DNA of 48,672 bases from Nanobdellota archaeon (GCA_038045665.1 JBBSXW010000068.1:3251-51922); one strand, 5' to 3'. Numbered from the stretch's first letter, positions 18,758-45,843 are shown. Numbers and translations are program-made. Notes: generated by a model from the letters alone, not told the origin.

Positions 18758-18801
18758 AATCTCAACCAACCTTTATAAACCCAATTTATTAGCCTTATTC
18801 T

Positions 18802-21753: not shown

Positions 21754-21763
21754 CTTTTTAAAT
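21754..21763 (+). promoter_or_regulatory. BRE/TATA-like element (CTTTTTAAAT) upstream of tRNA-Gln
   Basis: Ends about 22 nt before 21785. The same CTTT(T)WAAA-type motif occurs about 25-30 nt upstream of the other tRNAs and of many ATGs. Confidence 0.45.
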
Positions 21764-21804
21764 CGCCACCTTATTCTTTTCATAAGCCCCGTGCTGTGGT
21801 TAGC

Positions 21805-21927
21805 AGCCCCGTAGAAATTTCTGCGGAATGTAGTGGCCAATCACAATGCCCTTTGGAGGCATTAACCCAGGTTCGAATATAGGAGTGGGCCCTTATCAAC
21901 CCTTGTGCGAAAGTCCTGGCGGGGCTA
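21805..21927 (+). tRNA. tRNA-Gln(UUG) with two non-canonical BHB introns (21815-21828; 21878-21913)
   Basis: Spliced model: AGCCCCG-TA-GTGT-AGTGGCCAA-TCAC-A-ATGCC-CTTTGGA-GGCAT-TAAC-CCAGG-TTCGAAT-CCTGG-CGGGGCT-A (73 nt). Intron 1 (14 nt, position 10/11): central helix CCGT/GCGG, bulges AGA and AAT. Intron 2 (36 nt, position 59/60): central helix TTCG/CGAA, bulges AAT and AGT, flanked by the T-stem. Confidence 0.8.
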
Positions 21928-21944
21928 ATTTTTAAAACGATCAC

Positions 21945-22676
21945 ATGAAAAAATATAGCTATCCCTCTCTTAAGGATATAGTAGAAAAATCTCTGAATGC
22001 AAGATATATTTTTGGAACATTTGGCGAGTCCACGTTTAGTAAAGATGCTTTTTTATTTATCATAGGTTTGTACCAAGAAGCTAAACTTAGAATGAGGGGA
22101 TATTTAGAAATGGTATACTCAAATCCTAGCGAAGGCAGATTTTATAATGAATTGTTTCAAAATGTTTTCGAAGAATTGCCCAGCGATAGACCTCGCCCAA
22201 CACAAAAAAAACCTAATAGAAGAAGAATTATTTTCAATAGAGATCAAGTAACCGAAGTAGTTAAATATTTAACAGGGAACAACGAACACCCGCCTTACAT
22301 TCTCTTAGATTCAAGAACAAGAATGTTACTTTATTTAAGAGGCTTTTTATTTCGTGGTCTCAATGTAACACATAGCAATGATCATTCATCAACCAAGATT
22401 TATTCAAGAAAACGTCCAAAGGCAATACTAAGATATCCTCAGGAAAAAAGCGGGTTAGTGCATAAAATCCAAAAATTATTAGGGGAAAATTTTGATATTA
22501 ATTCGGTAGATTTTGAAAATGGCTTTGGTATATTTGATTTGGCAAGCCTAAAAAAATTAATAGACCTAAATTTAGTCAGATATAAAGTTGGAAAAAAGTT
22601 ACAAGAGCTATTAAAAGGTATGGAACGTTGCAGTAACCAACCGGCCCCACAAGGTTTTAGAAATCATCAAACCTAA
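21945..22676 (+). CDS. Hypothetical protein
   Basis: 243-aa ORF directly after tRNA-Gln, with a basic central segment (PRPTQKKPNRRRIIF). No firm family assignment. Confidence 0.45.
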   Translation: MKKYSYPSLKDIVEKSLNARYIFGTFGESTFSKDAFLFIIGLYQEAKLRMRGYLEMVYSNPSEGRFYNELFQNVFEELPSDRPRPTQKKPNRRRIIFNRDQVTEVVKYLTGNNEHPPYILLDSRTRMLLYLRGFLFRGLNVTHSNDHSSTKIYSRKRPKAILRYPQEKSGLVHKIQKLLGENFDINSVDFENGFGIFDLASLKKLIDLNLVRYKVGKKLQELLKGMERCSNQPAPQGFRNHQT

Positions 22677-22737
22677 CTAAAGAATAAAAAACATTAAATA
22701 TTCCAAAATCACTAATATTTCCAAAGGGGGTACTTTT

Positions 22738-22983
22738 ATGCAAGAAATAGGAGAAATTTTCCAATATTATGGCAAGATAGGCGTAGCCGCAATAAGATTA
22801 AACAAGTCTTTAAAAGCGGGGGATAAAATAAAAATCCGCGGCAATACAACGGATTTTGAGCAAGAAGTAAAGAGCATACAAATAGAGCACACAAAAGTTA
22901 AAGAAGCCAAGAAAGGAGACGAAATAGGAGTAAAGGTCGACGACAAAGTTAGACGTGGCGACAAGATATATTTAGTAGAGTAA
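22738..22983 (+). CDS. Small beta-barrel protein, EF-Tu domain-2-like ('translation elongation factor-like')
   Basis: 81 aa. The pattern GKIGVAAIRL...GDKIKIRG...GDEIGVKVDDKVRRGDKIY is typical of the translation-factor beta-barrel. SD-like GGGGGT lies upstream. Confidence 0.4.
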   Translation: MQEIGEIFQYYGKIGVAAIRLNKSLKAGDKIKIRGNTTDFEQEVKSIQIEHTKVKEAKKGDEIGVKVDDKVRRGDKIYLVE

Positions 22984-23044
22984 AGCTTATAAACCGCGTT
23001 TGAAAGGTATCAATATTTCAATCTAACTTAGATATCTCACTAAT

Positions 23045-23500
23045 ATGGCCAAGATGCATTCACGTAAGAAAGGACGTTCAGGAAGCCATAACCCATCACA
23101 AAAAACTAAAAAAGGTTGGGTTATCTATTCTGCAAAAGAAACAGAAAAACTAGTAGCCAAACTAGCAAAATCAGGAATGACAAGTACGCAAATTGGCCTA
23201 ACATTAAGAGACAGTTACGGTGTTCCAAAAGTAAAATTAATAACAAATAAAAAAATAACTAAAATATTAGAAGAAAATAAGCTAACAAAAAAGCTCCCTG
23301 AAGACTTAATCTCCTTAATTAAAAAAGACGTAAGGCTACAAAAGCATTTTGAAATAAACAAAAAAGACAATGCAGTTAAAAGAGGCATCCAGCTGACCAA
23401 GAGCAAAATAAACAGACTTTCCAAGTACTACAAATCCAGAGGCAAACTTCCTGTTGATTGGAAATACGATAGCTCACAGGCAAAAATGATTTTAGAATAA
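23045..23500 (+). CDS. rps15: Ribosomal protein S15 (uS15, archaeal S15P/S13e type)
   Basis: MAKMHSRKKGRSGSHNP N-terminus, 151 aa, conserved neighbour of a RecJ-like gene. Confidence 0.9.
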   Translation: MAKMHSRKKGRSGSHNPSQKTKKGWVIYSAKETEKLVAKLAKSGMTSTQIGLTLRDSYGVPKVKLITNKKITKILEENKLTKKLPEDLISLIKKDVRLQKHFEINKKDNAVKRGIQLTKSKINRLSKYYKSRGKLPVDWKYDSSQAKMILE

Positions 23501-23502
23501 AA

Positions 23503-24900
23503 ATGCAGGATTTTTTACATGAGATTAAAAAAGACGCTAATGAATTAAAAAAACACAACACTGAGTTAATTAAAGTCATAAGCCATTTGGATGCAGACGG
23601 ATTAAGCTCTAGCGCGATAATAACAAGGGCATTAACAAGAGGGGGTTTCAAATTCTCTTTGGCTACAGTTCGGCAATTAGACGATTTTCTGTTCGATGAG
23701 TTAAGCAGAGAGAATTTCTCAACGCTGATCTTTCTTGATTTAGGCAGTGGCAGCATCAAGCAAATTGAAGAAAGGTTCAAAAACAGAACTATATACATCT
23801 TAGACCATCACAAACCGCAAGACCACAAACCAAAAAATGCTACAGTAATCAACCCGCACTATTATAATATAGACGGCAGCAAAGAGATTTCAGGAGCGGG
23901 CATCGCCTATCTGTTCGCCAAAGCCCTTGACTCTGCAAACATAGACATGGCCCACATAGCAATCTTAGGTGCAATTGGTGACATGCAAGAAAACAACGGA
24001 TTCCACTCAGATCTTAACAATTTTATTCTTGAAGATGCAATTAATTCTGGAAAAATTGAAGTGAAAATCGGTTTGAGAATGTTTGGCATGCAAACAAGGC
24101 CAATAAACAAAGTTCTAGAATATACAACAGATCCATATATCCCTGGAGTTAGCGGTAACGAGCTCGGAACTAAAAAATTCTTAGAAGAGATAGGGCTCAA
24201 TTTTGTAGAGAATGGCAAATACAAAAAATTAGTTAATCTAACAGATGAGGAAATGAAAAAATTAGTAACAGGAATAATTCTAAGAAGAATAGGTTCAGAA
24301 GAAAAACCTGATGACGTTCTCGGCAAGGTATACTTATTAGTAGAAGAAGAAGACGAAAATCCATTAAAAGACGCAAAAGAATTCAGCACCTTATTAAACG
24401 CATGCGGGCGCCTTAATAAGCCAAGCGTCGGCATAGGATGTTGCTTGGGCGATAAAAAATCGAAGGAAGAAGCAATTATATTGTTACTCGATTACAAAAG
24501 AGAGATAATCAACTCGCTAAATTGGTTCTACGCGAATAAGAATAAATTCATCGAAGGTCCAGGATACTTAATCATCAATGCAGAAGATAATATAAAAGAC
24601 ACAATGATAGGCACAATCGGAAGTTTAATTTCCAAAAACAGCATGTATAAAGAAGGAACAATCATCATAACAATGGCTTATACAATAGATGGAAATATTA
24701 AAGCCAGTTTAAGAACAGTAGGTAAAACAAAAAAAGACCTGATGGCAATAACAAAAACAATTGTAACAAAAGTTGGCGGGATAGGCGGTGGCCATAAATA
24801 TGCGGCAGGAGCGCTGATACCTCTAGATAAAGAAAAAGAGTTCATAGAAGCCACCAAAGAGGTTCTAAAAGCAGGCATAATGGAAAAAACAATTGAATAA
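23503..24900 (+). CDS. RecJ/Cdc45-like DHH phosphoesterase (GAN-type)
   Basis: DHH-family motifs (ISHLDADGLSS, ILGAIGDM, DHH-like ILDHHKP) and DHHA1 GGGHKYAAGA. Confidence 0.8.
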   Translation: MQDFLHEIKKDANELKKHNTELIKVISHLDADGLSSSAIITRALTRGGFKFSLATVRQLDDFLFDELSRENFSTLIFLDLGSGSIKQIEERFKNRTIYILDHHKPQDHKPKNATVINPHYYNIDGSKEISGAGIAYLFAKALDSANIDMAHIAILGAIGDMQENNGFHSDLNNFILEDAINSGKIEVKIGLRMFGMQTRPINKVLEYTTDPYIPGVSGNELGTKKFLEEIGLNFVENGKYKKLVNLTDEEMKKLVTGIILRRIGSEEKPDDVLGKVYLLVEEEDENPLKDAKEFSTLLNACGRLNKPSVGIGCCLGDKKSKEEAIILLLDYKREIINSLNWFYANKNKFIEGPGYLIINAEDNIKDTMIGTIGSLISKNSMYKEGTIIITMAYTIDGNIKASLRTVGKTKKDLMAITKTIVTKVGGIGGGHKYAAGALIPLDKEKEFIEATKEVLKAGIMEKTIE

Positions 24901-24936
24901 AAATGGTTATAATTGCTATATTTAAAACAACTTAAA

Positions 24937-25497
24937 ATGGCTCAAATAACAAAAAAACGCAAAAAAAGCTGGGTCAAGATAATTGCTCCCAGAGAATTCA
25001 GAAACGCAGAGTTAGGAGAAAGCCTCGTTTATTCTCCTCAAGATCTAATAGGCAAGAGACTGAATGTTAATCTGTCAACGTTAATAGGGGATATGCGGAA
25101 ACAAAACACAAATATTCTTTTTAAAATTGAAGAGATAAAGGGAAGTCAAGCAATAGCAAACATTATCTCTTTCGAAATTTTGCCTGCTCACATTAAACGT
25201 ATGGTGCGAACATTAAAAGACAGGATAGATGACTCGTTCGTGGTTTCCAGCAAAGACCATCCAAAGATTCGCATAAAGCCCTTTGTGTTAACTAAGGCTA
25301 AAACCAGCAACTCAATATTAACTTTAATAAGAAAGAGAACAAGAGAAGAAGTAACAAAAATCGCATCAAAAAGCACATTTGCAGAATTCACAATAGAAGT
25401 CATATCCGGGCAATTAAAAAAACAACTAAAGCAAGAGTTGAATAAGATATACCCTATTACTATTTTTGAAATAAGAAAAATCGAACTGCTTAAATAG
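24937..25497 (+). CDS. rps3ae: Ribosomal protein S3Ae (eS1)
   Basis: MAQITKKRKKSWVKIIAP... from ATG 24937. The listed TTG 24913 start is unlikely. Confidence 0.88.
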   Translation: MAQITKKRKKSWVKIIAPREFRNAELGESLVYSPQDLIGKRLNVNLSTLIGDMRKQNTNILFKIEEIKGSQAIANIISFEILPAHIKRMVRTLKDRIDDSFVVSSKDHPKIRIKPFVLTKAKTSNSILTLIRKRTREEVTKIASKSTFAEFTIEVISGQLKKQLKQELNKIYPITIFEIRKIELLK

Positions 25498-25534
25498 ATA
25501 ATTTTTTAAATATCCATATTAGTTTCTTTCTTAA

Positions 25535-25700
25535 GCCACCGTAGCTCAGACTACTTTTGTGGTAGGAGCAATGGTAGAGCAAATCTTCAGAGAAGAGCTT
25601 TTCTGCCTTGTATGGGAAAGAAGCCTTGAGTGAGCAGAGAAACTTGAAAGAAATTTCTATTTCACTCTCTAGGTCGGGGGTTCAAATCCCTTCGGTGGCT
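25535..25700 (+). tRNA. tRNA-Thr(UGU) candidate with four BHB introns (25550-25571, 25583-25602, 25613-25632, 25638-25669)
   Basis: Spliced model (72 nt): GCCACCG-TA-GCTC-AGTGGTA-GAGC-A-ACTGC-CTTGTAA-GCAGT-AGGTC-GGGGG-TTCAAAT-CCCTT-CGGTGGC-T.
- Intron 15/16: helix GCTC/GAGC, bulges AGA/AAT, inner helix CTAC/GTAG.
- Intron 27/28: outer helix GGTA/TGCC, central helix GAGC/GCTT, bulges AAA/TTC, inner helix TCTTC/GAAGA.
- Intron 37/38 (canonical): central helix CTTG/TGAG, bulges TAT/TGA.
- Intron 42/43: helix GAGC/ACTC (one mismatch), bulges AGA/TCT, inner helix GAAA/TTTC.
The A27-U43 pair exists only after both flanking introns are removed. Confidence 0.65.
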
Positions 25701-25702
25701 TA

Positions 25703-26329
25703 TCATTTCCTCAATACAAAAACTAAATTCTTTCCAAAAATATTAGATTCCAAAATTCCGAATCCAGTTTTTCTTACAAATTTTTTCAACTCAAAATAAT
25801 CAAATAAATGAACATTCCTGAAATAAACCTTATCTCCAATTTTCCAAGGCATTCGTATATTTTTTCTTCTAAAAAGAAACCGTAATTGTAATTTATTCCA
25901 TACCGTCAAAAGCAATATTCCTTTTTTCTTCAAAACCCTATTCATTTCACTTAAAGCTTTCTTACTATCTTTATCATCAGTAACGTGATGCAAAGACGCC
26001 ACACTCAACACATAATCAAACTCTCTATCTTTAAAAGGCAATCTAAGCATATCGGCCCTGATTAATTTAATTTTAACATTATTTTTCTGCACGTATTCTT
26101 TAGCCTTCTTCAACATATTCTTCGAAAAATCAACTCCATAACATTCAAACCCATTTTTGGCAAAGGGTATCAAATTCCTCGCATTTCCGCATCCTATCTC
26201 TAAGATCTTGCCTTTTTTTGGTTTATACTTTTCCAAGAATTCATAAACTGGCTTAAACTTCATCTGCCTAAAATTATGCCATTGCTCAGCTATGTTATCC
26301 CAAACTTCTTCTTGGTTCATGTTTAACAA
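25703..26329 (-). CDS. Class I SAM-dependent methyltransferase
   Basis: Motif I ILEIGCGNARNL, motif II-like CYGVDFS, post-I acidic residue; about 200 aa (type 11-like). Confidence 0.8.
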   Translation of the reverse strand: MLNMNQEEVWDNIAEQWHNFRQMKFKPVYEFLEKYKPKKGKILEIGCGNARNLIPFAKNGFECYGVDFSKNMLKKAKEYVQKNNVKIKLIRADMLRLPFKDREFDYVLSVASLHHVTDDKDSKKALSEMNRVLKKKGILLLTVWNKLQLRFLFRRKNIRMPWKIGDKVYFRNVHLFDYFELKKFVRKTGFGILESNIFGKNLVFVLRK

Positions 26330-26333
26330 TAAA

Positions 26334-26351
26334 GCTTTTAAAACTTAAATA
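26334..26351 (+). promoter_or_regulatory. 18-nt promoter-like element GCTTTTAAAACTTAAATA (copy 1)
   Basis: Exact copy of 27256-27273. It lies in the divergent region between the methyltransferase and nucleotidase genes. Confidence 0.5.
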
Positions 26352-26400
26352 GATGACTGTAATAATCCATAGGTATAGTAATCTTAAAAATAATAATAAA

Positions 26401-27255
26401 ATGTCAAAAAATGTTATTATAACGAATGCTGAAAAACTAGAAAAAACAAAAAAAACTATTTCTACAGCAGGTGCCAAAAAATTTCATGTTTTATCAGATT
26501 TTGACAGAACGCTTACAAAGGCATTTGTCAATAGAAAAGAAGTTCCTTCTCAAATTTCTGTTTTAAGAGAGAGGGGTTACTTATCTAATGATTATGCAAC
26601 AAAAGCGTACGCTCTATATAACAAGTATCATCCCATCGAAGTTGATCCGAAAATTCCAATAAAAGAAAAAAAAGCTCAGATGCAAGCGTGGTGGGAAGCT
26701 CACTTTAAACTATTAATTGAATCTGGATTAAACAGAAGGGACCTAGAAAGAGTAGTTGAATCAAAGAAGATAAAATTCAGAAAGGGCGCATTAGAATTAA
26801 TTGATTTTTTATATAAACATAATATTCCTTTGGTTATTCTTTCCTCAAGCGGTTTAGGCACAGATGCAATCAGAATGAGCTTAGATAAGAAAAGAAGGCT
26901 ATATGACAATGTCTACATCGTTTCTAATTCGTTTGAATGGGATGAAAAAGGCAATGCAATTGGGGTTAAAAAGCCCATAATTCATGGAATGAACAAAGAT
27001 GAAACCGTAATTCAGACTTTTCCTTTTTTTAATGTAATTCGCCATAGGACCAATGTTCTATTATTGGGAGATAGCTTAAGCGACGTTGATATGGTTAAAG
27101 GTTTTGATTATGAAAATTTAATCAGAGTTGGATTTTTAAATAAAGACATCGAAAATAGTTTGGAGGCATATAAAAGAAATTTTGATATCATTATATTGAA
27201 TGATTCTCCCATGGATTATGTTAACGACCTGATTGCGGGTATGTTCGGGCAATAG
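26401..27255 (+). CDS. HAD-superfamily pyrimidine 5'-nucleotidase, cN-III/UMPH-1-like
   Basis: DxDxT motif (VLSDFDRTLT), YHPIEVDPKIPIKEKKAQMQAWWEAH, LSSSGLG, VSNSFEWDEKGN..IHGMNKDE and LLLGDSLSDVDM all match my memory of the cytosolic 5'-nucleotidase III family. The start could be 26353 or 26401. Confidence 0.65.
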   Translation: MSKNVIITNAEKLEKTKKTISTAGAKKFHVLSDFDRTLTKAFVNRKEVPSQISVLRERGYLSNDYATKAYALYNKYHPIEVDPKIPIKEKKAQMQAWWEAHFKLLIESGLNRRDLERVVESKKIKFRKGALELIDFLYKHNIPLVILSSSGLGTDAIRMSLDKKRRLYDNVYIVSNSFEWDEKGNAIGVKKPIIHGMNKDETVIQTFPFFNVIRHRTNVLLLGDSLSDVDMVKGFDYENLIRVGFLNKDIENSLEAYKRNFDIIILNDSPMDYVNDLIAGMFGQ

Positions 27256-27273
27256 GCTTTTAAAACTTAAATA
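27256..27273 (+). promoter_or_regulatory. 18-nt promoter-like element GCTTTTAAAACTTAAATA (copy 2), upstream of tRNA-Val
   Basis: Exact repeat of 26334-26351. It ends 15 nt before tRNA-Val position 1. Confidence 0.5.
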
Positions 27274-27287
27274 AATAATTACGATAA

Positions 27288-27403
27288 GGGCCCGTAGTCT
27301 AGAACATAGTGGACAATAGCTATGACGTCGCCTTGAAAGGTTTATTTTTTTAAACTTTGGGCACACGTGGCGGAGGTCGCGGGTGCAAATCCTGCCGGGC
27401 CCA
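27288..27403 (+). tRNA. tRNA-Val(GAC) candidate with two BHB introns (27303-27316; 27336-27364, the latter inside the anticodon)
   Basis: Spliced model (73 nt): GGGCCCG-TA-GTCT-AGTAGCTA-TGAC-G-TCGCC-TTGACGT-GGCGG-AGGTC-GCGGG-TGCAAAT-CCTGC-CGGGCCC-A.
- D-loop intron (14 nt): helix GTCT/GGAC, bulges AGA/AAT.
- Anticodon intron (29 nt, position 34/35): central helix GCCT/GGGC, bulges TGA/ACA, 8-bp inner helix AAGGTTTA/TAAACTTT.
The unspliced loop reads TTGAAAG and mimics Phe(GAA), but the canonical 37/38 BHB does not fold. Confidence 0.55.
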
Positions 27404-27451
27404 TTTCCTCAATACAAAAAATTTAAATATCCGATAGTAGTAACGAAAAAA

Positions 27452-28378
27452 ATGAAAACCAGCCTTTATCACAATAATAGGCAAAGAGCTTCTCACTATG
27501 TAAGTATTAAAAAAAATCGTGAAACAAGGATTAGAAAGAAATTATTTAAAGAGCCTGAACGTGGTGGATTAAGACCGGATATAAATATAGATACATCAAG
27601 CATAGACGATTTCATAGAAAAAGCAAGGGCAACACTACCAGTTAAACATGCAGACCTATTTATTGACACATCTGGAATATTTGGAGTTGATGTAGTTAGA
27701 GAAAATAACAATGGTAATATTGCGCTAGAATCTTTGTTTGATTTTTACCAGAACCTAATTGAATATGCTAATGACCCAGGGTGGAGTGTATTAACTTTAG
27801 AGTTATATGATCAATATACAAAATTAGCACAATTTTATAGTGGAGAATTATTCAACAGGAAAAATGTTTTTATAATTAAAGAAGTTTTAGATGAGATTAA
27901 ACGAACTCTTAATATAGTAAAAAATCAAGTAAATAAAAGTGATTGCAAAAAATATGCGAGAAAATTTACAAAACCAATAGAAAATATATATTTTGCTGCT
28001 GAAGAAAATGAAAATATGACTAAATGGTTGGAGACAGATCCTCTATCTGATATTATTTATAGTGTGCTACCAACAATGACCCCGGGGGGATCATTAAGCA
28101 GAACAGATAGAAGGTTAATAGCTATCCCTCTAGCACGCAGTCTTAGAGATGGAAGGGAAAAGGTTATCCTTACAAAAGATAGAGGAATTCGCGAGGCTTT
28201 AAAAGTTTTAAGTCTCCATGTTACTAATGAAAATATTGTTAGTCAACTTGAATTGCATGCTCCGCCAGAAGGATTTAAACAAGTAACTATAAGTACAGCA
28301 GGCTTACGGTTTGATTTAGAAAGCAGGCTTTATTTATACGCTACCAGCCACAAATACCATAATTTCTTCAATAAGTAA
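27452..28378 (+). CDS. PIN-domain-like protein (putative ribonuclease) with basic N-terminal extension
   Basis: The start is moved to ATG 27452 because the listed 27383 start overlaps tRNA-Val. Four acidic PIN-like positions are present in order: LFIDTSG, IIKEVLDEI, SRTDRRLIA, ILTKDRGI. Confidence 0.4.
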   Translation: MKTSLYHNNRQRASHYVSIKKNRETRIRKKLFKEPERGGLRPDINIDTSSIDDFIEKARATLPVKHADLFIDTSGIFGVDVVRENNNGNIALESLFDFYQNLIEYANDPGWSVLTLELYDQYTKLAQFYSGELFNRKNVFIIKEVLDEIKRTLNIVKNQVNKSDCKKYARKFTKPIENIYFAAEENENMTKWLETDPLSDIIYSVLPTMTPGGSLSRTDRRLIAIPLARSLRDGREKVILTKDRGIREALKVLSLHVTNENIVSQLELHAPPEGFKQVTISTAGLRFDLESRLYLYATSHKYHNFFNK

Positions 28379-28409
28379 ATTAAACCCGAATTATGCTTGT
28401 CACTAACTA

Positions 28410-28424
28410 ACTTACTAAGTAAGT
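28410..28424. promoter_or_regulatory. Perfect 15-nt palindrome ACTTACT-A-AGTAAGT (candidate operator) within a CTAA-rich tract
   Basis: 7-nt arms around a single central nucleotide, so it cannot form an RNA hairpin loop. It lies about 15 nt upstream of a TATA-like GATTTAAATAG and about 55 nt upstream of the RHH-like ORF. Confidence 0.4.
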
Positions 28425-28478
28425 AACTAATTAAGAAAGATTTAAATAGAGCAAATTAATGCATTTTTCTAAAAGAGG

Positions 28479-28604
28479 ATGAAAAAATATCTGCTTTTAA
28501 TAGAGGACGAGAAGCTTTGGGCTAGATTCAAGTCTCTAATTAAAAACGACATCAACACAGAGATCATAAAATTAATTAAAAAAAAGGTAGAAGAAAAAAA
28601 ATGA
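28479..28604 (+). CDS. 41-aa ribbon-helix-helix-like ORF (below ORF-track cutoff)
   Basis: MKKYLLLIEDEKLWARFKSLIKNDINTEIIKLIKKKVEEKK*. The pattern is beta-strand then two helices, as in CopG/Arc. Its stop overlaps the next ATG (ATGA). Confidence 0.4.
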   Translation: MKKYLLLIEDEKLWARFKSLIKNDINTEIIKLIKKKVEEKK

Positions 28605-36385: not shown

Positions 36386-36467
36386 GTTCAACCCAATTTG
36401 AAGTTAAAAATATATTTATATATCCTAATATTAACAAAAAACCATGACAGAAAGCCACATACTTGTT

Positions 36468-38012: not shown

Positions 38013-38144
38013 CTAATAACATCTAAATGAGATTTATTTAAACTTTTCTGATCTGCCCAAAATAAAGTCCTAAAATTTAAGTAAGGTTTATAAAATTTAT
38101 TAAAGCTACATACAAATTTATTTAACCATAAGGAGGATTAAAAA

Positions 38145-38879: not shown

Positions 38880-38936
38880 TCAAAAAAACTTTTTTCTTTT
38901 TTTAAACAAACGCACAACAAAGTATTTATATCCCAA

Positions 38937-39836
38937 GTGCATCATTCTAGCATGCACAAAGAGGTTTACCAGATTGGTGTCATCTGCACACCAAAAGGAA
39001 ATGCAACAGAAAAATTTCTTTTTCCCCTCATTAAGAAAAAATTTGATGTAGTCTTCTTTCCTTTGCATAACGATATTGATTATGACGATTTGAAGAAAAA
39101 ATCTGAGTCTCTTCGCGTTGTCTTGAACACTGCTGGAGATATTCCCTATGCTTTTGATGCTCTTGAGATGATTAAAACATTTGAAGGTTTTGGGAAGCAC
39201 GTTATTGATTCTTCAAAATCTTTTTATTATCGAGAAGATAAATGGCTGTTTTATCAAACGTGTTTGAAGCATCATCTGCCTACACCAAAATCATATTATA
39301 TCCCGAGGAATATTAACTTATTGAGAGGAAAATTGCGCAATATCTTGAAAGAAGGACCTGTTGTCTTTAAAGGTATTTTTTCTGATACAGGAAGAGACGT
39401 GAAAAGAGCCTCTACATATTCAGAAGCATTAAGAGCCGTGAGTATTTTGAGAAAGCATATTGGAACAATGCCAATAGTTGCCCAGAAGTATATAGAACAC
39501 GGAACAATAAGTTATCGCGTTACGCTGGTAGGCGATCATATTGTTCAAGCAATCACTAAATACGGAAAAACATGGAAAGAGGGAAAATTATTTTGGAAGA
39601 ACGAAAAATACCGCTTGTTTATCCCGGATAAATTTGTTACTGAGCTATGTAAAAAAACAGCCAGAATTTTTGGGCTAGAGTGGTGTGGCATTGATTTAAT
39701 GAAGGATTCAGAAGGGCAATGGTACTTGATTGAAGTAAATAGCTGCCCAAGCATGGATTTTATAATAAGAGATGCAAAGCGCGCTTCTGAAGAACTTGTA
39801 GATTATTTGTTAAATGTTCATAAAAAGACAATTTAA
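38937..39836 (+). CDS. ATP-grasp ligase, RimK/LysX-like
   Basis: C-terminal ATP-grasp block WCGIDLMKDSEGQWYLIEVNSCPSMDF and a central VVFKGIFSDTGRDV. The start may be the internal ATG at 38952. Confidence 0.6.
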   Translation: MHHSSMHKEVYQIGVICTPKGNATEKFLFPLIKKKFDVVFFPLHNDIDYDDLKKKSESLRVVLNTAGDIPYAFDALEMIKTFEGFGKHVIDSSKSFYYREDKWLFYQTCLKHHLPTPKSYYIPRNINLLRGKLRNILKEGPVVFKGIFSDTGRDVKRASTYSEALRAVSILRKHIGTMPIVAQKYIEHGTISYRVTLVGDHIVQAITKYGKTWKEGKLFWKNEKYRLFIPDKFVTELCKKTARIFGLEWCGIDLMKDSEGQWYLIEVNSCPSMDFIIRDAKRASEELVDYLLNVHKKTI

Positions 39837-39839
39837 GCA

Positions 39840-39968
39840 TTATTTTTTATCAGCCTTTTTTCTGAGCCATTCTGCATATTTCTCAACAAACTCTAATCTC
39901 TCTTTCCTATTTCTTTCTACGCTTTCTCTTATTTCATCTAAATCTATTTTTAAATTTTTTTTATTCAT
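39840..39968 (-). CDS. 42-aa helical ORF coupled to the upstream nucleotidyltransferase gene
   Basis: MNKKNLKIDLDEIRESVERNRKERLEFVEKYAEWLRKKADKK*. Its ATG overlaps the upstream stop (ATGA). Confidence 0.3.
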   Translation of the reverse strand: MNKKNLKIDLDEIRESVERNRKERLEFVEKYAEWLRKKADKK

Positions 39969-40567
39969 CTTACTATTCGGTCTATAACCTCTACTTTGAC
40001 CTTTAATTCATTACAAAAATGTATAATCTCTTCCATATTTAAATATTTTCTAAAAAATATCCATAAATGTCTCGCATCTTCTAAATCCTTATCACTGCCC
40101 AAATATAACTTAAAAGCTATTTGTAGCTCTAATACAGAAGTATTTATCCTATATTCTTGGTTTACCTCAATTATCAATTTGTTATTTAAACAAAAAATGT
40201 CTAGTGAGGTTTTAACAAACTTGAGCTCAATATTTGGTATGTATTCTCCCTCTCTTGAAAACCTCAAACCGCTACCATTAACAAGATAATCGTAAGCATC
40301 ATTAAAATCTTTCGTGTTCAAGCATTCGTACTTCTGTATCAAAGTTCTCCATACAAGAGTAAACTTCTCTAAGGATAACCTATTTATAAAAAAATCAACG
40401 TCTTCCGTATTCCTGCTCCTGCCAAAAAGTATTGCAATGTAACCAGAGATTATCACATAGTCTATATTTAGTTTATCTAATACGCTAACGAACTCTTTAA
40501 CAAAAAAGTCCAAGCTATCGATTTTTTTATCCAAGTAGATAATCTTGCCTTTAACTTTAAATTGCAT
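39965..40567 (-). CDS. Nucleotidyltransferase-fold protein (AbiEii/DUF6036-like)
   Basis: ISGYIAILFGRSRNTEDVDFFI matches the G-x-A..yG..R.T.D(I/V)Df minimal NTase signature of AbiEii-type toxins. Confidence 0.45.
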   Translation of the reverse strand: MQFKVKGKIIYLDKKIDSLDFFVKEFVSVLDKLNIDYVIISGYIAILFGRSRNTEDVDFFINRLSLEKFTLVWRTLIQKYECLNTKDFNDAYDYLVNGSGLRFSREGEYIPNIELKFVKTSLDIFCLNNKLIIEVNQEYRINTSVLELQIAFKLYLGSDKDLEDARHLWIFFRKYLNMEEIIHFCNELKVKVEVIDRIVR

Positions 40568-40613
40568 TTATATCGCATAGGTAACAATCATTAATAAACA
40601 TTTACATAATAAT

Positions 40614-40801
40614 TGCGGGGAGGAGGACTTCCGTCAAGGTTGCAGGTTGATAAGGATGCAATCCTTATGTTCGAACCTCCGTAGGCACTAAGCCAATAGG
40701 TCCTAAGCTTGGACTTCAAATGAATCTATCCCGTCTGGTCAAGTTTCTTTCCCAAGGCTTTCTTCTTAAGAAAGGCTTTTTGACCGCTCCGGCATCCCCG
40801 C
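40614..40801 (-). tRNA. tRNA-Leu(UAG) with three BHB introns (plus-strand coordinates 40735-40779, 40709-40725, 40628-40669)
   Basis: Spliced model (84 nt, minus strand): GCGGGGA-TG-CCG-GAGCGGTCAAA-CGG-G-ATAGG-CTTAGGA-CCTAT-TGGCTTAGTGCCTAC-GGAGG-TTCGAAT-CCTCC-TCCCCGC-A.
- D-loop intron (45 nt): helix GGTC/GACC, bulges AAA/AGA.
- Anticodon-stem intron (17 nt, position 30/31): helix GGAT/GTCC, bulges AGA/AAG, inner helix TTC/GAA.
- T-loop intron (42 nt, position 59/60): helix TTCG/CGGA, bulges AAC/AGT. Confidence 0.72.
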
Positions 40802-40901
40802 GCTACATTAAATCTGTCATAAAGGCCTCATAAAAACCTTGCGGTAATTATAAAAAACATTAAAAACTAAGCTATTTCTACAAATAAGAAGAGGTATTCA
40901 A

Positions 40902-41993
40902 ATGCAAGTAGATCCTTGGTCATTAACAGCCATAAAAGACTATTCAAAACTAATGAAAGAATTCGGAGTTGACGACTTCTCAGACTATGCTAAAAAGTTA
41001 CCAAATGCCCCTCTAGAGATAAAAAGAAATCTCGTAATAGGTCATAAAAACTTTGAAAAAATTTACGAATGCATTAAGAAAAAAAGCAAATTCGCAATAC
41101 TGACAGGATTAATGCCATCTGGCTCATTTCATCTAGGCCACATGTCAGTTATCAATCAGGTAATATACTATCAAAAGTTAGGAGCAAAAATCTATTTATT
41201 GGCAGCAGATATAGAAACCCAATTAACAAGAAACATCTCACAAGAACAAGCAAGAAAAATAGCCATTGAAGAATATCTAACTAATTACTTTGCCTTGGGA
41301 GTGTCAACAAAGAACCTTGAGTTTTATTTTCAGTCAGACGGTCCAAAACTAAAAACAAAAGAATACGTAAACCTAAGTAAGCTAGCCTCAGCAAAAACCA
41401 CGTTCAATGAAATAAAAGCAATCTATGGAGAAATCTCGCCACAAAAATTAATCTCTGCTTTAACACAGGTGGCAGATATTCTCTACCCTCAATTAGAAGG
41501 TTACAAAGCAACGCTAACCCCAATTGGATTTGACCAGTTGAATCACGCAAATTTGGTTCGTGACCTTGCATCCAGAATGAAATTCAGTCTCCCAAGCTTC
41601 ACGTTCCATAAGCTATTGCCTGGTTTAAAAGGCATGTCATCCAAAATGTCATCCTCAGATCCAAATAATGCAATCTTTTTAACAGACTCCCCAAAAACAG
41701 TAGAATTAAAAATTAAAAAATATGCATTCTCAGGCGGTCAAGCTACTGAAGAAGAACACAAGAAAAAAGGCGGCAACCCCGAAATAGATATTTCATTCAT
41801 TTATCTGAAAACAACATTCGAGCAAGATGATAAAAAATTAGAAAAAATCTACAATGACTACAAATCAGGCAAACTCCTAACATCAGAACTAAAGCAAATT
41901 GCAATAGACAAGATAAATTCATTCCTAAAAACGCATCAAAAAAACAGAGAAAAAGCAAGAAAACAAGTAGATAAATTGTTGCAAAAAAGTTAA
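40902..41993 (+). CDS. trpS: Tryptophanyl-tRNA synthetase (archaeal/eukaryal type)
   Basis: HIGH-type motif (PSGSFHLGH), KMSKS-type motif (KMSSS), and the FSGGQATEEEHKKKGGNPEIDISFIYL block typical of archaeal TrpRS. Confidence 0.85.
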   Translation: MQVDPWSLTAIKDYSKLMKEFGVDDFSDYAKKLPNAPLEIKRNLVIGHKNFEKIYECIKKKSKFAILTGLMPSGSFHLGHMSVINQVIYYQKLGAKIYLLAADIETQLTRNISQEQARKIAIEEYLTNYFALGVSTKNLEFYFQSDGPKLKTKEYVNLSKLASAKTTFNEIKAIYGEISPQKLISALTQVADILYPQLEGYKATLTPIGFDQLNHANLVRDLASRMKFSLPSFTFHKLLPGLKGMSSKMSSSDPNNAIFLTDSPKTVELKIKKYAFSGGQATEEEHKKKGGNPEIDISFIYLKTTFEQDDKKLEKIYNDYKSGKLLTSELKQIAIDKINSFLKTHQKNREKARKQVDKLLQKS

Positions 41994-41995
41994 GA

Positions 41996-42187
41996 TTATT
42001 TTTTCCTTCTACCCCAGCTTGGAATCTTTTTCTGCCAAGAATACTTTCTCATTTTTTTAGTCTTACCATATCCGCAATGACTGCAAACGCCACTTTTCTT
42101 ATGATAGCTAGATCTTCCGCATCTTCTGCAAGGATAATGCAGTTTAGCCCTCCCCTTCAAGCCCTTTGACGCAGTTCCCTTTACCAC
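41996..42187 (-). CDS. rpl37e: Ribosomal protein L37e
   Basis: VKGTASKGLKG...CRRCG...CSHCGY zinc ribbon; GTG start. Confidence 0.9.
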   Translation of the reverse strand: MVKGTASKGLKGRAKLHYPCRRCGRSSYHKKSGVCSHCGYGKTKKMRKYSWQKKIPSWGRRKK

Positions 42188-42240
42188 AACTAACTCACTT
42201 TTAAATCATTTTAAAAATCTTCCGCTAAAGAACTAGCTGC

Positions 42241-42465
42241 TTACTGGGGCGAAATCAAGATTATAGTATCTCCCCTTAAAAAAACAGTTCCTATCTTCCT
42301 TATTACCTGATTATCCATACGCTCCTCTGCATTGTCTAATACTGTATTGATATGTATGTCAAAAGCCTTCAACGTTCCTGCAAACTGTTTTCCATTCTTC
42401 AATTCTACTAGCACTGTCTTTCCTCGTGACTGGTTCAATGAATCTAGTGGTCTGTCAGAGTCCAT
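42241..42465 (-). CDS. Sm-like archaeal protein (SmAP/LSm)
   Basis: Sm1/Sm2 motifs (VLVELKNGKQFAGTLKAFDIHINTVL ... VFLRGDTIILI), in the conserved pairing with L37e. Confidence 0.9.
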   Translation of the reverse strand: MDSDRPLDSLNQSRGKTVLVELKNGKQFAGTLKAFDIHINTVLDNAEERMDNQVIRKIGTVFLRGDTIILISPQ

Positions 42466-42574
42466 AAATTAAAAACCCCCATAAAAAACCGCATATAAGC
42501 TGCTTTAAAAATCTTTGTATTTAAAATATTAATTATCGCTATCTATTTATATCTTGACTTCTCTAAATATCTAA

Positions 42575-43912
42575 ATGAAAAGGGGACTATCGCCATTAAT
42601 CTCAACAGTAATCCTGATTGCATTGGTAGTAGTAGTCTTTGTCATAACAGGCTCTTGGTTCAGGCAATTTTCAGAGGAAATACTAAGAGTTACAGGAAAA
42701 GAGTCAGCAAAGCAAATAACCTGCTCATCCCCAGAAGTTTTTCTAGAAATTGACACTGCATGCTACAATCAAGATGAAGCAATTCTTGTCTTAGGAGCAG
42801 GAAAACTCAAATTTGAAAATTTTATCATAGCATTGTCATCAAATGAGCAAGTTACATTAGAAACAACAAGCGGTTTAGATCAATTCAAAATAAAAAAATT
42901 CACGCTAAGTACAGACTCTCAAGATTTAACAGACGAGTCAAGAGAAAAGTTAGAAAGTATAGACTTTACAAAAACTCAGCAAATAAAGGTAGTGCCTCAA
43001 ATTATAAACGAAAATGAATTAGCCGTATGCCAAAACCTGATAAAAACAAAAACAAATATAGAATGCTGCAAAGGGGGAAATGCTTGTGGTTGCTCAGATA
43101 ATTCAGACTGCGCCAACAATTTCCCTAATAATATCTGTGATAATAGCTTTTGTGTCGAATGCGGAAATGATAACGATTGTGAAAATGATCCAAATAAACC
43201 AGACCATTGCGATACCACAAATAAAAGGTGCGTAGAGTGTTTAGAGAATCAGCATTGCCAGCAAGAAGAACAGTGCATTGATAATCAATGCGTACAGCAA
43301 CTTAGTTGCAATGATATAGGCTCATCAGATTATAATGTCATAGAAGGAACCCCAGAATCATTATGCCTAACTGATAGAGAAGTAAGATTAAAGATAAATA
43401 GCATTTCAAACGAGATAGAAGATTTCAAGATAAAAATAAAAGACAGCTCACAAACTCAAATCTATGATAGTATTATTTCAATTTCTAATGGAGAAACTAC
43501 TTTACCAAATGTAATGTATCACGATAGTTTTCAAACAAATAACTTTTTAGACAATATAGAAATAATTCCAAGAATAAACGGACAAAATGGAATTGAAGAA
43601 TGTCCAAATGCCGCCTTAATAAAAACTCTTAAAGTTGCTGACAATATTGCAATATGCTGTGATAAGAGTATAGAATGCAATCAAAACGGAGAACCGCAAG
43701 GCTCTCAAAGTTGCTGTGACAGAGACTGTGGCAATAATCCTTTTACTGCATCTGCTATAAAAAAATTAGGAGATCCATTTGAAGAAGAAGACCAATGCAA
43801 CCCATTTGACACAAACAAATTAAATGAGAAAATTTGTGATGAAATTATAGAAAATGATTGCTGGGTGTATAATGAAGCCCAATGTCAAAATAACAAATGC
43901 TTAGCCCAATAA
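42575..43912 (+). CDS. Archaeal type IV pilin-like protein with large Cys-rich C-terminal region
   Basis: N-terminus MKRGLSPLISTVILIALVVVVFV matches the archaeal pilin/flagellin N-terminal (DUF361-type) class III signal. The C-terminal half has repeated CxxxxDC/CxxC modules (CVECGNDNDCENDPNKPDHCD...CVECLENQHCQ...). Confidence 0.7.
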   Translation: MKRGLSPLISTVILIALVVVVFVITGSWFRQFSEEILRVTGKESAKQITCSSPEVFLEIDTACYNQDEAILVLGAGKLKFENFIIALSSNEQVTLETTSGLDQFKIKKFTLSTDSQDLTDESREKLESIDFTKTQQIKVVPQIINENELAVCQNLIKTKTNIECCKGGNACGCSDNSDCANNFPNNICDNSFCVECGNDNDCENDPNKPDHCDTTNKRCVECLENQHCQQEEQCIDNQCVQQLSCNDIGSSDYNVIEGTPESLCLTDREVRLKINSISNEIEDFKIKIKDSSQTQIYDSIISISNGETTLPNVMYHDSFQTNNFLDNIEIIPRINGQNGIEECPNAALIKTLKVADNIAICCDKSIECNQNGEPQGSQSCCDRDCGNNPFTASAIKKLGDPFEEEDQCNPFDTNKLNEKICDEIIENDCWVYNEAQCQNNKCLAQ

Positions 43913-43941
43913 ATATAAATAACAAGACTAAACACATTAGA

Positions 43942-44463
43942 TTATTTAACTTTCCTTCTATATAAAAAAGGCAGGCCTACTAGAAACAAAGCCACTGTGC
44001 TTGGCTCAGGAGGCGTCGGGGTTCTATCAATTTGATCTGGATAGACCACATTGCCAAAAATTTCATTATTGGGATCTCTATTGTTTGTAAAGTATTCAAT
44101 ATTAACATGCCATCTTGCTCCATTGTCACTAGCGTCAAATCTCGCTTCATCTGGCCCTAATTCAAAAAGCGGTACATAAAGATCTCCATCTCTCTCTAAT
44201 CCAAAATCTATCAGGCCACTCCTATTCGCCCATGCTTGGATTAGGTAATTTCCATCTCCGATGCGATGATTACTAACGTGTATAGGATCTGTATACTCGC
44301 CCTCCCAAAACAATTTCAAAACATCGCTTTCTAAAGCCGGTTGACCATCAAACATAACAGTACCGGTATAATCGTTCTCAACATACTGTGCATTCACATC
44401 CTTGCTAAAATACAAACTACCTAAAATAGTAGCCCCAATACCTAATCTTCTTAATAAGCTCAT
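43942..44463 (-). CDS. Secreted protein with PEP-CTERM-type C-terminal sorting signal
   Basis: Sec signal MSLLRRLGIGATILGSLYFSKDVNAQ. The C-terminus TPTPPEPSTVALFLVGLPFLYRRKVK has a Pro-Glu-Pro motif, a hydrophobic helix and a basic tail. Confidence 0.65.
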   Translation of the reverse strand: MSLLRRLGIGATILGSLYFSKDVNAQYVENDYTGTVMFDGQPALESDVLKLFWEGEYTDPIHVSNHRIGDGNYLIQAWANRSGLIDFGLERDGDLYVPLFELGPDEARFDASDNGARWHVNIEYFTNNRDPNNEIFGNVVYPDQIDRTPTPPEPSTVALFLVGLPFLYRRKVK

Positions 44464-44580
44464 TTTATTTCTCTAATATATTTTCTAATATTTAATATTA
44501 TTTAACTACTAATCAATAGTATTTAAATCTTTCGTAATCAAAAGCAACCTTTTTAAACACCGCTAAAATAAGCCAACTAA

Positions 44581-44955
44581 ATGGCAATATCTCAATTAAG
44601 ATCAAGAAGAAAACCATCAGGAGCAAGATACAAAAAAATAGTCAAAAAGCTCAGAAATAAAGGAAATCTCCCAACCCTAACAGGCATAGGAAAACTAAGA
44701 AAAACAGCAGCAAAAACTAGAGGCGGGCATATTAAACAAAGAATACTCAAAACGGACATAGCAAACATCTATGATCCAAAATTAAAAAAATACTTCAAAT
44801 CTAAAATAGAAAGCGTAATAGACGCCCCTAGCAACAGAAACTTTGTAAGAAGAAACATCATGACAAAAGGCACTATTATAAAAACAGAAAAAGGCAATGC
44901 CAAAATAACCTCCCGCCCAGGACAAGAGGGAACTGTTAATGCTATTTTAGTATAA
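44581..44955 (+). CDS. rps8e: Ribosomal protein S8e
   Basis: MAISQLRSRRKPSGARYKK... basic N-terminus, 124 aa. A CCTTTTTAAA promoter-like box lies about 30 nt upstream. Confidence 0.88.
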   Translation: MAISQLRSRRKPSGARYKKIVKKLRNKGNLPTLTGIGKLRKTAAKTRGGHIKQRILKTDIANIYDPKLKKYFKSKIESVIDAPSNRNFVRRNIMTKGTIIKTEKGNAKITSRPGQEGTVNAILV

Positions 44956-44957
44956 AA

Positions 44958-45254
44958 ATGAGATTTAGAATTCAAACATTAAAATCCATTTACATAGTAG
45001 ACTTAGAGGCCAGAACGTTATCTAAAAACAAAAAACCAATAGAATTAGAGGATCACGCAGTAAATATAATCTCTCAAGAGCAGAAAAAAGAAGTAGTTAC
45101 AGAAGAAAACGCAATGAACTTATTTAATTATCAACAAGCTCCTCCTCACATCAATAAAGGAAGCCAACCATATCAAATAGCCTACAAACAAAAAAACTGT
45201 CCAGCAACTCAATTCTCAAGTAAAATCACATCTATAAAACAAGTATTAAATTAG
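44958..45254 (+). CDS. Hypothetical protein
   Basis: 98-aa ORF tightly following S8e. No recognisable motif. Confidence 0.35.
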   Translation: MRFRIQTLKSIYIVDLEARTLSKNKKPIELEDHAVNIISQEQKKEVVTEENAMNLFNYQQAPPHINKGSQPYQIAYKQKNCPATQFSSKITSIKQVLN

Positions 45255-45526
45255 CCTATCCCTCTCCTAACATCAGTAACATCCACGCTCATAACCCCAT
45301 CTATATTCCTTATATTGTCTTCCAATGGATCAAGATTGCTTATTTTCTCATCTAAGCTAAATCTTGTTATTAAAGCATTTAGTCCAAAAGCAACAGGCTC
45401 TTTTTCAAAACCAGAAACCTTCCCGCCGAACTTCTCAATCAAATTCTTAGCTTCTTTTTGAATTTCATCTAGATCAACATCAACGCTTTCAGGCATTATC
45501 TTAAAAGTAACCAGAACTATACCCAT
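45251..45526 (-). CDS. ef1b: Translation elongation factor aEF-1 beta
   Basis: MGIVLVTFKIMPESVDVDLDEI...EPVAFGLNAL...VDVTDVRR is the typical 90-aa aEF-1beta. Confidence 0.88.
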   Translation of the reverse strand: MGIVLVTFKIMPESVDVDLDEIQKEAKNLIEKFGGKVSGFEKEPVAFGLNALITRFSLDEKISNLDPLEDNIRNIDGVMSVDVTDVRRGIG

Positions 45527-45528
45527 TT

Positions 45529-45687
45529 TTAGTTAGGACCTTCAAATTGACAGCGTTGACAAACATATTTAGTGGCTATTTCCCTCTCGTGATAGCTTCT
45601 GACTATTTTCGTTTCTCCGCATTGCGGGCATACAAACTTCACACTTCCAGGAAGCAGCGCTTTTCCATTAGGCGTTCTCTCAACCAT
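45529..45687 (-). CDS. Zn-ribbon protein (52 aa, below ORF-track cutoff), conserved EF-1beta neighbour
   Basis: Hand translation: MVERTPNGKALLPGSVKFVCPQCGETKIVRSYHEREIATKYVCQRCQFEGPN*. CPQC...CQRC zinc ribbon. Confidence 0.7.
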   Translation of the reverse strand: MVERTPNGKALLPGSVKFVCPQCGETKIVRSYHEREIATKYVCQRCQFEGPN

Positions 45688-45741
45688 AGGAAAACAATCT
45701 AAATAAATATTTATAAAGATTTCTTTAATCTATTAGCTTAT

Positions 45742-45843
45742 GCCCTCGTAGTTTAGGCTGGATATTATATAAACCAGTAAGAATGCGACCTTGCGGATTT
45801 TAGCGAAAAGGTTGTGACCGAGGTTCAAATCCTCGCGAGGGCG
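45742..45843 (+). tRNA. tRNA-Arg(GCG) with two BHB introns (45764-45779; 45797-45808)
   Basis: Spliced model (74 nt): GCCCTCG-TA-GTTT-AGGCTGGATA-GAAT-G-CGACC-TTGCGGA-GGTTG-TGAC-CGAGG-TTCAAAT-CCTCG-CGAGGGC-G.
- D-loop intron (16 nt): helix CTGG/CCAG, bulges ATA/TAA.
- Canonical 37/38 mini-intron (12 nt): helix TTGC/GCGA, bulges GGA/AAA. Confidence 0.72.

Follow-up and report, generated by a model that had tools for sequence, protein, structure and literature searches.

Five interrupted tRNA genes

The stretch of DNA analysed here, referred to as the window, comprises 48,672 nucleotides (nt) from a Nanobdellota archaeon of the Woesearchaeota (DPANN; GCA_038045665.1 JBBSXW010000068.1:3251-51922), and it carries five tRNA genes that are interrupted by a total of 13 short introns of the bulge-helix-bulge (BHB) type, most of them at non-canonical positions. 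The window has a GC content of about 34% and a gene content of archaeal character, including SRP54, FtsY, a GAN/Cdc45-like DHH protein, GINS, aIF2-alpha, RadA, and archaeal-type ribosomal proteins, and its SRP54 shared 60-76% identity with proteins from metagenome-assembled genomes of Woesearchaeota/Nanoarchaeota.

When the sequence was scanned for 7-bp acceptor stems around a T-loop-like motif, five candidates emerged, namely tRNA-Gln(UUG) at 21805-21927 (123 nt, two introns), tRNA-Thr(UGU) at 25535-25700 (166 nt, four introns), tRNA-Val(GAC) at 27288-27403 (116 nt, two introns), and tRNA-Arg(GCG) at 45742-45843 (102 nt, two introns), all on the plus strand, together with tRNA-Leu(UAG) at 40614-40801 on the minus strand (188 nt, three introns). 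The lengths were identical to those given in a first-pass annotation of the window, to which the minus-strand orientation of tRNA-Leu is a correction. The annotation had called the genes split, a term that does not suit them, as in all five the exons are contiguous and collinear within a single intron-containing gene of 102-188 nt. Upon in silico removal of the 13 introns, the genes collapsed to 73 (Gln), 72 (Thr), 73 (Val), 84 (Leu, with a long variable arm), and 74 nt (Arg), and ARAGORN accepted all five products as regular cloverleaves, which were assigned as tRNA-Gln(ttg), Thr(tgt), Val(gac), Leu(tag), and Arg(gcg), respectively, in good agreement with the cloverleaves of 72-84 nt that had been proposed. 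Locally, the density thus amounts to 2.6 introns per gene, with 5/5 genes interrupted, one of them by four introns, and with intron sizes of 12-45 nt.

The unspliced window gave no tRNA with ARAGORN, and a search of the whole window against Rfam at gathering thresholds returned nothing; at permissive thresholds the sole Rfam match was a tRNA-like T-arm/acceptor segment at 45787-45842, within tRNA-Arg. The unspliced genes are invisible to the detectors, and they represent a new example of a known phenomenon. The window contained no further intact T-arm and no other intergenic sequence resembling a tRNA, and the one short contig of another assembly that matched it (Hainich well H51; masked stretch) held no extra tRNA.

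Bulge-helix-bulge geometry of the introns

In the BHB rule as applied here, exon bases -6 to -3 at the 5' site pair with intron bases -6 to -3 at the 3' site, and each 3-nt bulge is cut after its second base; the register agrees with the known anticodon-intron pairing geometry. A hand parse under this rule reproduced exactly the list of positions in the first-pass annotation, that is, 10/11, 15/16 (twice), the 3' side of the D-loop (twice), 27/28, 30/31, 34/35, 37/38 (twice), 42/43, and 59/60 (twice). When classified by their contiguous flanking pairs, two of the 13 motifs were strict hBHBh', seven HBh', three hBH, and one BHL-like, and both flanking helices reached at least 2 bp only in Thr 27/28 and Thr 37/38. 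Such relaxed BHB classes are recognised in the literature (PMC5829648).

In tRNA-Gln, the BHL-like 10/11 intron (21815-21828, 14 nt; helix CCGT:GCGG, bulges AG/A and AA/T, the slash marking the cut) has a central helix that draws on acceptor-stem bases 5-8, and the T-loop intron at 59/60 (21878-21913, 36 nt; hBH, TTCG:CGAA, bulges AA/T and AG/T) has the T-stem as its outer helix. The introns of tRNA-Thr lie at 15/16 (25550-25571, 22 nt; HBh', GCTC:GAGC, bulges AG/A and AA/T, inner helix of 5 bp), at 27/28 (25583-25602, 20 nt; strict hBHBh' with 4 outer, 4 central, and 5 inner pairs), at the canonical position 37/38 (25613-25632, 20 nt; strict hBHBh'), and at 42/43 (25638-25669, 32 nt; relaxed, inner helix GAAA:UUUC). 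Between the last two, exon 4 is a 5-nt micro-exon, AGCAG (25633-25637, positions 38-42), which was also found in one of the related Woesearchaeota loci (labelled L001 and so forth; L001, 11430-11553). Those of tRNA-Val were placed at 15/16 (27303-27316, 14 nt; HBh', GTCT:GGAC, bulges AG/A and AA/T) and at 34/35 (27336-27364, 29 nt; HBh', GCCT:GGGC, inner helix of 8 bp); a cut at 35/36 would give the identical product, and the rule is satisfied by 34/35 only. On the minus strand, tRNA-Leu is interrupted on the 3' side of the D-loop (40735-40779, 45 nt; HBh', GGTC:GACC, bulges AA/A and AG/A), at 30/31 (40709-40725, 17 nt; HBh', GGAT:GTCC, bulges AG/A and AA/G, inner helix of 3 bp), and at 59/60 (40628-40669, 42 nt; hBH, TTCG:CGGA, bulges AA/C and AG/T), the last intron containing a hairpin ATAAGGAT/ATCCTTAT followed by CAACC. 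Finally, tRNA-Arg carries an intron on the 3' side of the D-loop (45764-45779, 16 nt; HBh', CTGG:CCAG, bulges AT/A and TA/A) and another at 37/38 (45797-45808, 12 nt; hBH/BHL, TTGC:GCGA) with the anticodon stem as outer helix. The bulges AG/A and AA/T shared by the three D-arm introns, and TTCG with AG/T in both 59/60 introns, were as previously described.

All four central-helix pairs were present at the rule-predicted place in 12/13 introns, while Thr 42/43 formed 3/4, and these only with intron 37/38 still present (G98-C133); the earlier claim that all 13 introns follow the rule was therefore upheld for the 12 full helices and had to be relaxed for Thr 42/43. When the introns were shuffled with the junction fixed, a 4/4 helix arose in 0.4-6% of the trials, with a mean of 2.4% per intron. 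No alternative register leading to the same product existed at 8/13 junctions, and the remaining five allowed one shift, with fewer helix pairs. In the folded precursors, the mean pair probability of the central helix was 0.78-1.0 in 6/13 introns, namely Arg D-loop (1.0), Leu D-loop (0.99), Thr 15/16 (0.99), Gln 59/60 (0.91), Val 34/35 (0.78), and Val 15/16, the latter only once 34/35 had been removed. It was approximately 0.5 for Gln 10/11 and 0.02-0.31 for Leu 30/31, Leu 59/60, and Arg 37/38.

A strict BHB finder, which required both flanking helices to be at least 2 bp, recovered just Thr 27/28 and 37/38 among the introns. Its other candidates, Thr cuts 100/134, Leu cuts 102/122 (inside the T-stem), and Leu 98/113, were rejected as their products are not tRNAs. 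The 3' part of intron 42/43 is complementary to intron 37/38 (window 25625-25673, positions 91-139 of the Thr gene), with 4 outer, 4 central, and 3 inner pairs, and the near-perfect BHB-like structure that they form at Thr cuts 100/134 may act as a decoy or as an intermediate of folding.

Orthologous genes and exon boundaries

The gene order SRP54 > tRNA-Gln > tRNA-Thr > tRNA-Val was conserved in the relatives. Orthologues of tRNA-Gln(UUG) without introns were found in L053, L058, L024, L009, and L027, the 10/11 intron recurred in L036, L033, L057, and L044, and the 59/60 site was also occupied in L004; other Gln orthologues were interrupted at 37/38 (many) or at further D-loop or anticodon-stem sites. 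The insertions in these Gln orthologues coincided exactly with the intron placement in the window. As for tRNA-Thr, L001 possessed the same 27/28, 37/38, and 42/43 introns and L004 the 27/28 intron only, the 15/16 site was occupied in L003 and L068, and position 37/38 was occupied in L003 and L022 as well as in L001. Syntenic Val genes were likewise present in the relatives, the 15/16 site being occupied in the Val gene of L009, and the D-loop site of tRNA-Leu held a 15-nt intron in L163. Such patchy presence and absence in the Gln, Thr, and Val orthologues, together with the Gln/Leu family described below, would provide a good data set for intron gain, loss, and transfer.

The lengths of the spliced products equalled those of intron-less orthologues or differed by one base. 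Gap-free alignments were obtained for Gln (73/73 nt with 59 identities), Thr (72/72 nt with 62 identities; the 72-nt orthologue of L024, which lacks introns, aligned gap-free), and Leu (84/84 nt with 66 identities to the spliced L153 gene), and 1-4 gap positions were needed for the more distant orthologues (Gln L024, Thr L053, and Val L053). The spliced D-loops of Leu, GGTCAAAC, and of Arg, CTGGATAG, agreed with those of L153 and of L060 tRNA-Arg, respectively. Across the related loci, 41 of the 67 tRNA genes with an intact T-arm (61%) exceeded 78 nt, and T-loop-interrupted genes of 100-208 nt also occurred; the commonness of such long genes indicates that intron richness is a trait of the clade.

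Three tRNA genes on related or co-binned contigs were particularly long (208 nt, L043 3276-3483; 177 nt, L071 9418-9594; 162 nt, L070 3774-3935) and probably contain three or four introns each. We also observed that tRNA-Val(GAC), with the D-loop AGUAGCUAU and the T-loop UGCAAAU, has A18 and G55 (window 27318 and 27385) instead of G18 and U55, which form a near-universal tertiary pair in tRNA. The same double change was present in the L004 orthologue (16822-16909), and the other relatives have the canonical bases.

These comparisons also bear on the possibility that the genes are real but that some boundaries lie elsewhere, either in tRNA-Thr, where introns at 25582-25601 and 25639-25670 would leave a U27-A43 pair, or in the D-loop of tRNA-Arg, where an alternative junction gives AGGCUGGUAA. 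The U27-A43 pair of the L024 and L004 orthologues speaks for such a shift, as do the imperfect helix of Thr 42/43 and the low folding probability of the Thr anticodon-arm motifs, but the alternative registers gave merely 0-2 of the four central-helix pairs (hand check; shifts computed), and L060 tRNA-Arg favours CUGGAUAG. Moreover, L001 has A27 whatever the boundary, so that U43 must be taken from the far side of the same intron. Positions 27 and 43 pair as A-U both in the window and in L001, and as U-A in L004, a covariation that the cut rule predicts. The geometry at Thr 42/43 was the same in L001, the pair contributed by the last base of intron 37/38 being G-C in the window and C-G in L001. 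The U27-A43 boundaries, with their poor central helix and their contradiction by L001, were kept as a minor alternative, and displaced boundaries of either kind were judged improbable.

Intron families

Beyond their common position and bulge, the Gln and Leu 59/60 introns share an 11-nt block, CCTTATCAACC, that follows a hairpin (ATAGG.../ATAAGGAT...), and the score of this similarity was reached by only 1/2000 dinucleotide shuffles; in the intron-family test this was the one pair that proved related. A metagenome scan for TTCGAA...CCTTATCAACC returned mostly chance matches, real T-loop introns being found only in the tRNA-Leu genes of two unrelated contigs, L153 (minus strand, around 694) and L163 (3030-3270), both of which carry at 59/60 the module ATAAGG...CCTTATCAACC, as in the window Leu and Gln genes. 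Judging from these sequences, the 59/60 introns constitute a real family. Its occurrence in Gln, Leu, and two unrelated contigs fits intron transfer between tRNA species, and a transfer between Leu and Gln probably took place. In addition, the conservation of the hairpin exceeds what a BHB motif needs and hints at a function.

The look-alike classes had been taken in the first-pass annotation to suggest spread by duplication or transposition. For the 59/60 pair this view gained support from the shuffles and from L153 and L163, but it could not be maintained for the D-arm introns (Gln 10/11, Thr 15/16, and Val 15/16), no pair of which was significantly similar in sequence, the bulge bases alone being shared. 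The common bulges are largely attributable to conserved exon bases (A14 G15/U16 or A9 G10/U11) combined with an A-rich intron end. Their pattern among the orthologues shows the Gln 10/11 and the 15/16 introns to be old and site-specific for each tRNA. The first base of the intron was A in 10/13 cases, as compared with 34% A in the introns (binomial estimate, approximately 0.002).

The 45-nt D-loop intron of tRNA-Leu (40735-40779, minus strand) contains a direct repeat of AAAGCCTT (two copies) and has 10-nt blocks in common with Thr 37/38 (TGGGAAAGAA) and Thr 42/43 (AGAAACTTGA); the likeness to these two introns was weak (27/2000 shuffles) and purine-rich, and was not relied on. The heptamer CTTAAGA in this intron was considered as an anticodon loop and rejected, no flanking stem being possible.

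A leader copy upstream of tRNA-Gln

The start of tRNA-Gln had previously been placed at 21785, which proved to be that of an upstream acceptor-strand copy, the gene itself beginning at 21805. The 20-nt leader (21785-21804, plus strand) holds a second copy of the first 8 bases of the gene (AGCCCCGT), and a start at 21785 was rejected since no exon combination from the first AGCCCCGT copy yields a D-stem. All five Gln genes that contain the 10/11 intron (the window, L036, L033, L057, and L044) have a copy of their first five bases at most 30 nt upstream, as against 0/15 Gln genes lacking this intron (Fisher 6e-5), and none was detected in the 63 other tRNA genes of the related loci.

TATA-like boxes, each identified as a consensus match only, precede all five genes. 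Those of tRNA-Thr (25505-25512, plus strand, approximately 30 nt upstream of the gene), tRNA-Val (27259-27266), tRNA-Arg (45710-45717), and tRNA-Leu (40827-40834, minus strand) lie at the usual distance. The box of tRNA-Gln (21757-21763) is located 48 nt upstream of the gene and 28 nt upstream of the leader copy; that is, it has been moved upstream by the length of the leader, and the spacing of about -28 to -35 is kept to the copy and not to the gene, which suggests that the leader copy is probably transcribed. In the minimum-energy folds, the leader copy paired with the 3' acceptor strand, while the true exon 1 paired with the intron. It is plausible that the leader copy serves as a tether of the 10-nt 5' exon during splicing. 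The association between leader and intron may alternatively stem from common descent or from a single event that created both features.

Splicing endonuclease of the relatives

Considering that 11/13 motifs are relaxed, an endonuclease of broad specificity is a reasonable expectation for this organism. The splicing endonuclease EndA was sought with M. jannaschii EndA as a probe, and the matches were then confirmed independently with Pfam and PDB. EndA was identified in three related contigs (L036, L025, and L073), which also hold multi-intron tRNA-Gln genes, as proteins of 188-220 residues with a catalytic and an N-terminal domain (PF01974 and PF02778). These are single-unit, alpha-type enzymes whose best structural relatives were the M. 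jannaschii alpha4 enzyme (1A79) and the N. equitans alpha subunit (3IEY_A), and their Tyr, His, and Lys residues line up with the catalytic triad. L036 EndA aligned gap-free with 1A79 over residues 42-188, showing no insertion compared with this narrow-specificity enzyme, and in the Lys/Arg-rich loop that surrounds the catalytic His it was six residues shorter than N. equitans alpha. Three insertion loops have been proposed to confer broad specificity, L1 in crenarchaea, L2 in ARMAN-2, and L3 in N. equitans (PMC3488258; PMC5829648). The known loops do not account for broad specificity in the relatives, and a second subunit may be encoded elsewhere.

In L036, the genes for EndA and a metallo-beta-lactamase protein are arranged head to head (17789-18355, minus strand, and 18349-19299, plus strand), and the same arrangement was found in L025 (17335-17997 and 17897-18865); the metallo-beta-lactamase protein showed a weak, below-cutoff match to the tRNase Z family. 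The EndA proteins of the relatives also bear a Lys/Glu-rich N-terminal extension of approximately 40 residues.

Proposed splicing pathway and alternative explanations

Taken together, the five loci are very probably functional, collinear tRNA genes, each with two to four short BHB-type introns that would be spliced by proteins. In the pathway we envisage, each gene would be transcribed from its own TATA-type promoter as an intron-holding precursor, in which the exon-intron pairs would form a BHB or its relaxed version, with the four exon bases that directly precede the 5' cut pairing with the four intron bases that directly precede the 3' cut. An EndA tolerant of relaxed motifs would then cut both bulges, each after the second base, and an RtcB-type ligase would join the exons to give standard tRNAs of 72-84 nt. 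As the final base of intron 37/38 is required for its helix, the Thr 42/43 intron would probably be removed before 37/38, and the 5-nt micro-exon implies that removal would be sequential, not simultaneous. The splicing order of the Thr introns was also sought by thermodynamics, which was uninformative, all probabilities being near zero. In pre-tRNA-Gln, the 10-nt 5' exon may be kept on the 3' acceptor strand by the upstream AGCCC copy for as long as acceptor bases 5-8 are engaged in the intron helix.

Several observations weigh against this account. The folding probability was near zero for the three Thr anticodon-arm motifs, the competing fold at Thr 27/28 differing solely in a 4x4 internal loop in place of the two bulges, and the helix of Thr 42/43 is imperfect. 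A stronger BHB-like structure exists in the Thr gene, whose cuts after 100 and 134 would lead to a non-functional product. The choice of boundaries partly used the same rule that was later tested, but 8/13 junctions admit a single register and the products are fixed by the orthologues. On the enzyme side, neither an EndA nor a ligase gene was found in the window, EndA being absent among the open reading frames scanned there, and none of the known specificity-loop insertions was found in the EndA of the relatives, on which alone this was tested.

The failure of ARAGORN and Rfam to recognise the loci would also be expected of decaying tRNA pseudogenes with random insertions, the functional intron-less copies residing elsewhere in the genome. 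We regard this explanation as very improbable, because ARAGORN accepted all five spliced products as cloverleaves, the insertions fall in the BHB register far above chance, the TATA-like boxes are kept at the usual distance, and distant orthologues share these introns at a syntenic, single-copy position. Split or permuted genes in the Nanoarchaeum sense, with halves transcribed separately and joined in trans, would suit an organism of the same superphylum, and a 2026 preprint ascribes the 'missing' tRNAs of the phylum to possible split genes (10.64898/2026.05.13.725050), but the collinear exons within 102-188 nt, the single promoter-like box per gene, and the lack of leader/trailer complementarity between separate loci leave this a negligible chance.

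Within the account of collinear, protein-spliced genes, two linked readings go further: the leader would be a functional tether or chaperone for pre-tRNA-Gln that guards against loss of the 10-nt 5' exon, and a plain alpha-type EndA would handle mostly relaxed motifs. That both hold jointly is a tentative proposal, which we consider rather doubtful at present. If the former were true, the leader may represent a previously undescribed accessory element for introns invading the acceptor/D region. As for the latter, the loop-less EndA may attain broad specificity by a fourth route, to which, for instance, its Lys/Glu-rich N-terminal extension or a partner that escaped detection might contribute. 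Both the leader copy and this EndA are testable leads, and the seeming conflict of relaxed motifs with an enzyme that has no such loop can be tested directly in vitro.

Elsewhere in the window, the gene for a class II (B12-dependent) ribonucleotide reductase (3953-8053) is interrupted by an intein that bears a LAGLIDADG homing-endonuclease domain, and an NrdR-like regulator (3535-3948) lies directly upstream of it.

Comparison with known systems

In the Thermoproteales, the occurrence of several non-canonical BHB introns in one tRNA gene is well established, with a stated maximum of three introns and a proposed role for transposition (Sugahara 2008; Fujishima 2010; PMC4033280). The present genes resemble them in having several BHB or relaxed introns per gene in the D-arm, anticodon stem, and T-loop, and similar introns across tRNA species, but they belong to another superphylum and to a mesophilic, AT-rich genome, and one of them has four introns; in addition, the relatives have an EndA of one alpha unit that lacks the crenarchaeal loop, and not an (alpha-beta)2 enzyme. 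The view in the first-pass annotation that such a density is known mainly from the Thermoproteales is outdated, with ARMAN (PMC3239211), Asgard (PMC11291895), and DPANN archaea generally (PMC5829648) on record. In the Asgard Atabeyarchaeia and Freyarchaeia, 92-95% of the tRNA genes are interrupted, by up to 4 introns per gene (PMC11291895, Supplementary Data 4). Nearly all tRNA genes being interrupted, many non-canonical introns, and under-detection by standard tools are features common to these archaea and the window; the lineage and the EndA type are different, and the Asgard density is approximately 1.7 introns per gene (our own division, 228 introns in three genomes) versus 2.6 in the small sample of the window. 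Outside the archaea, Cyanidioschyzon merolae has up to three ectopic BHB introns per gene, including ones in the D-arm and T-loop, whose ordered removal was demonstrated by reverse transcription PCR, but it is a eukaryote and some of its genes are also permuted (PMC3728597).

Closer in lineage, ARMAN-2 and N. equitans are likewise DPANN archaea with relaxed motifs (HBh', hBH, and BHL) and T-loop introns (PMC3239211, PMC3488258, PMC5829648). Their EndA is of the epsilon2 or (alpha-beta)2 type, whereas the Woesearchaeota EndAs (L036, L025, and L073) are collinear with M. jannaschii alpha4 and are without the N. equitans loop, and, unlike in N. equitans, no trans-split genes were seen here.

That standard detectors are blind to all five genes constitutes an annotation problem. 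In an ARAGORN intron search, five 'tRNA-Stop(tta)' calls were obtained, of which three (L001 5896-5986, L022 12964-13052, and L068 5092-5183) were tRNA-Gln(UUG) with the 37/38 intron parsed in the wrong register, and two (L044 3793-3898 and L009 18601-18799) lay at other intron-containing tRNA genes, not Gln; such calls are a ready source of mis-annotation. Kaneta et al. (2018), who included a Woesearchaeota genome in their analysis, linked DPANN EndAs to increased tRNA gene disruption, and reported that DPANN tRNA sets were incomplete and needed manual curation (PMC5829648). A 2026 survey of 208 complete genomes of the phylum listed 26-54 tRNAs per genome, with Trp and Val 'missing' (10.64898/2026.05.13.725050). 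Heavily interrupted genes of the kind described here are the likely cause of these 'missing' tRNAs, as Kaneta et al. (2018) predicted.

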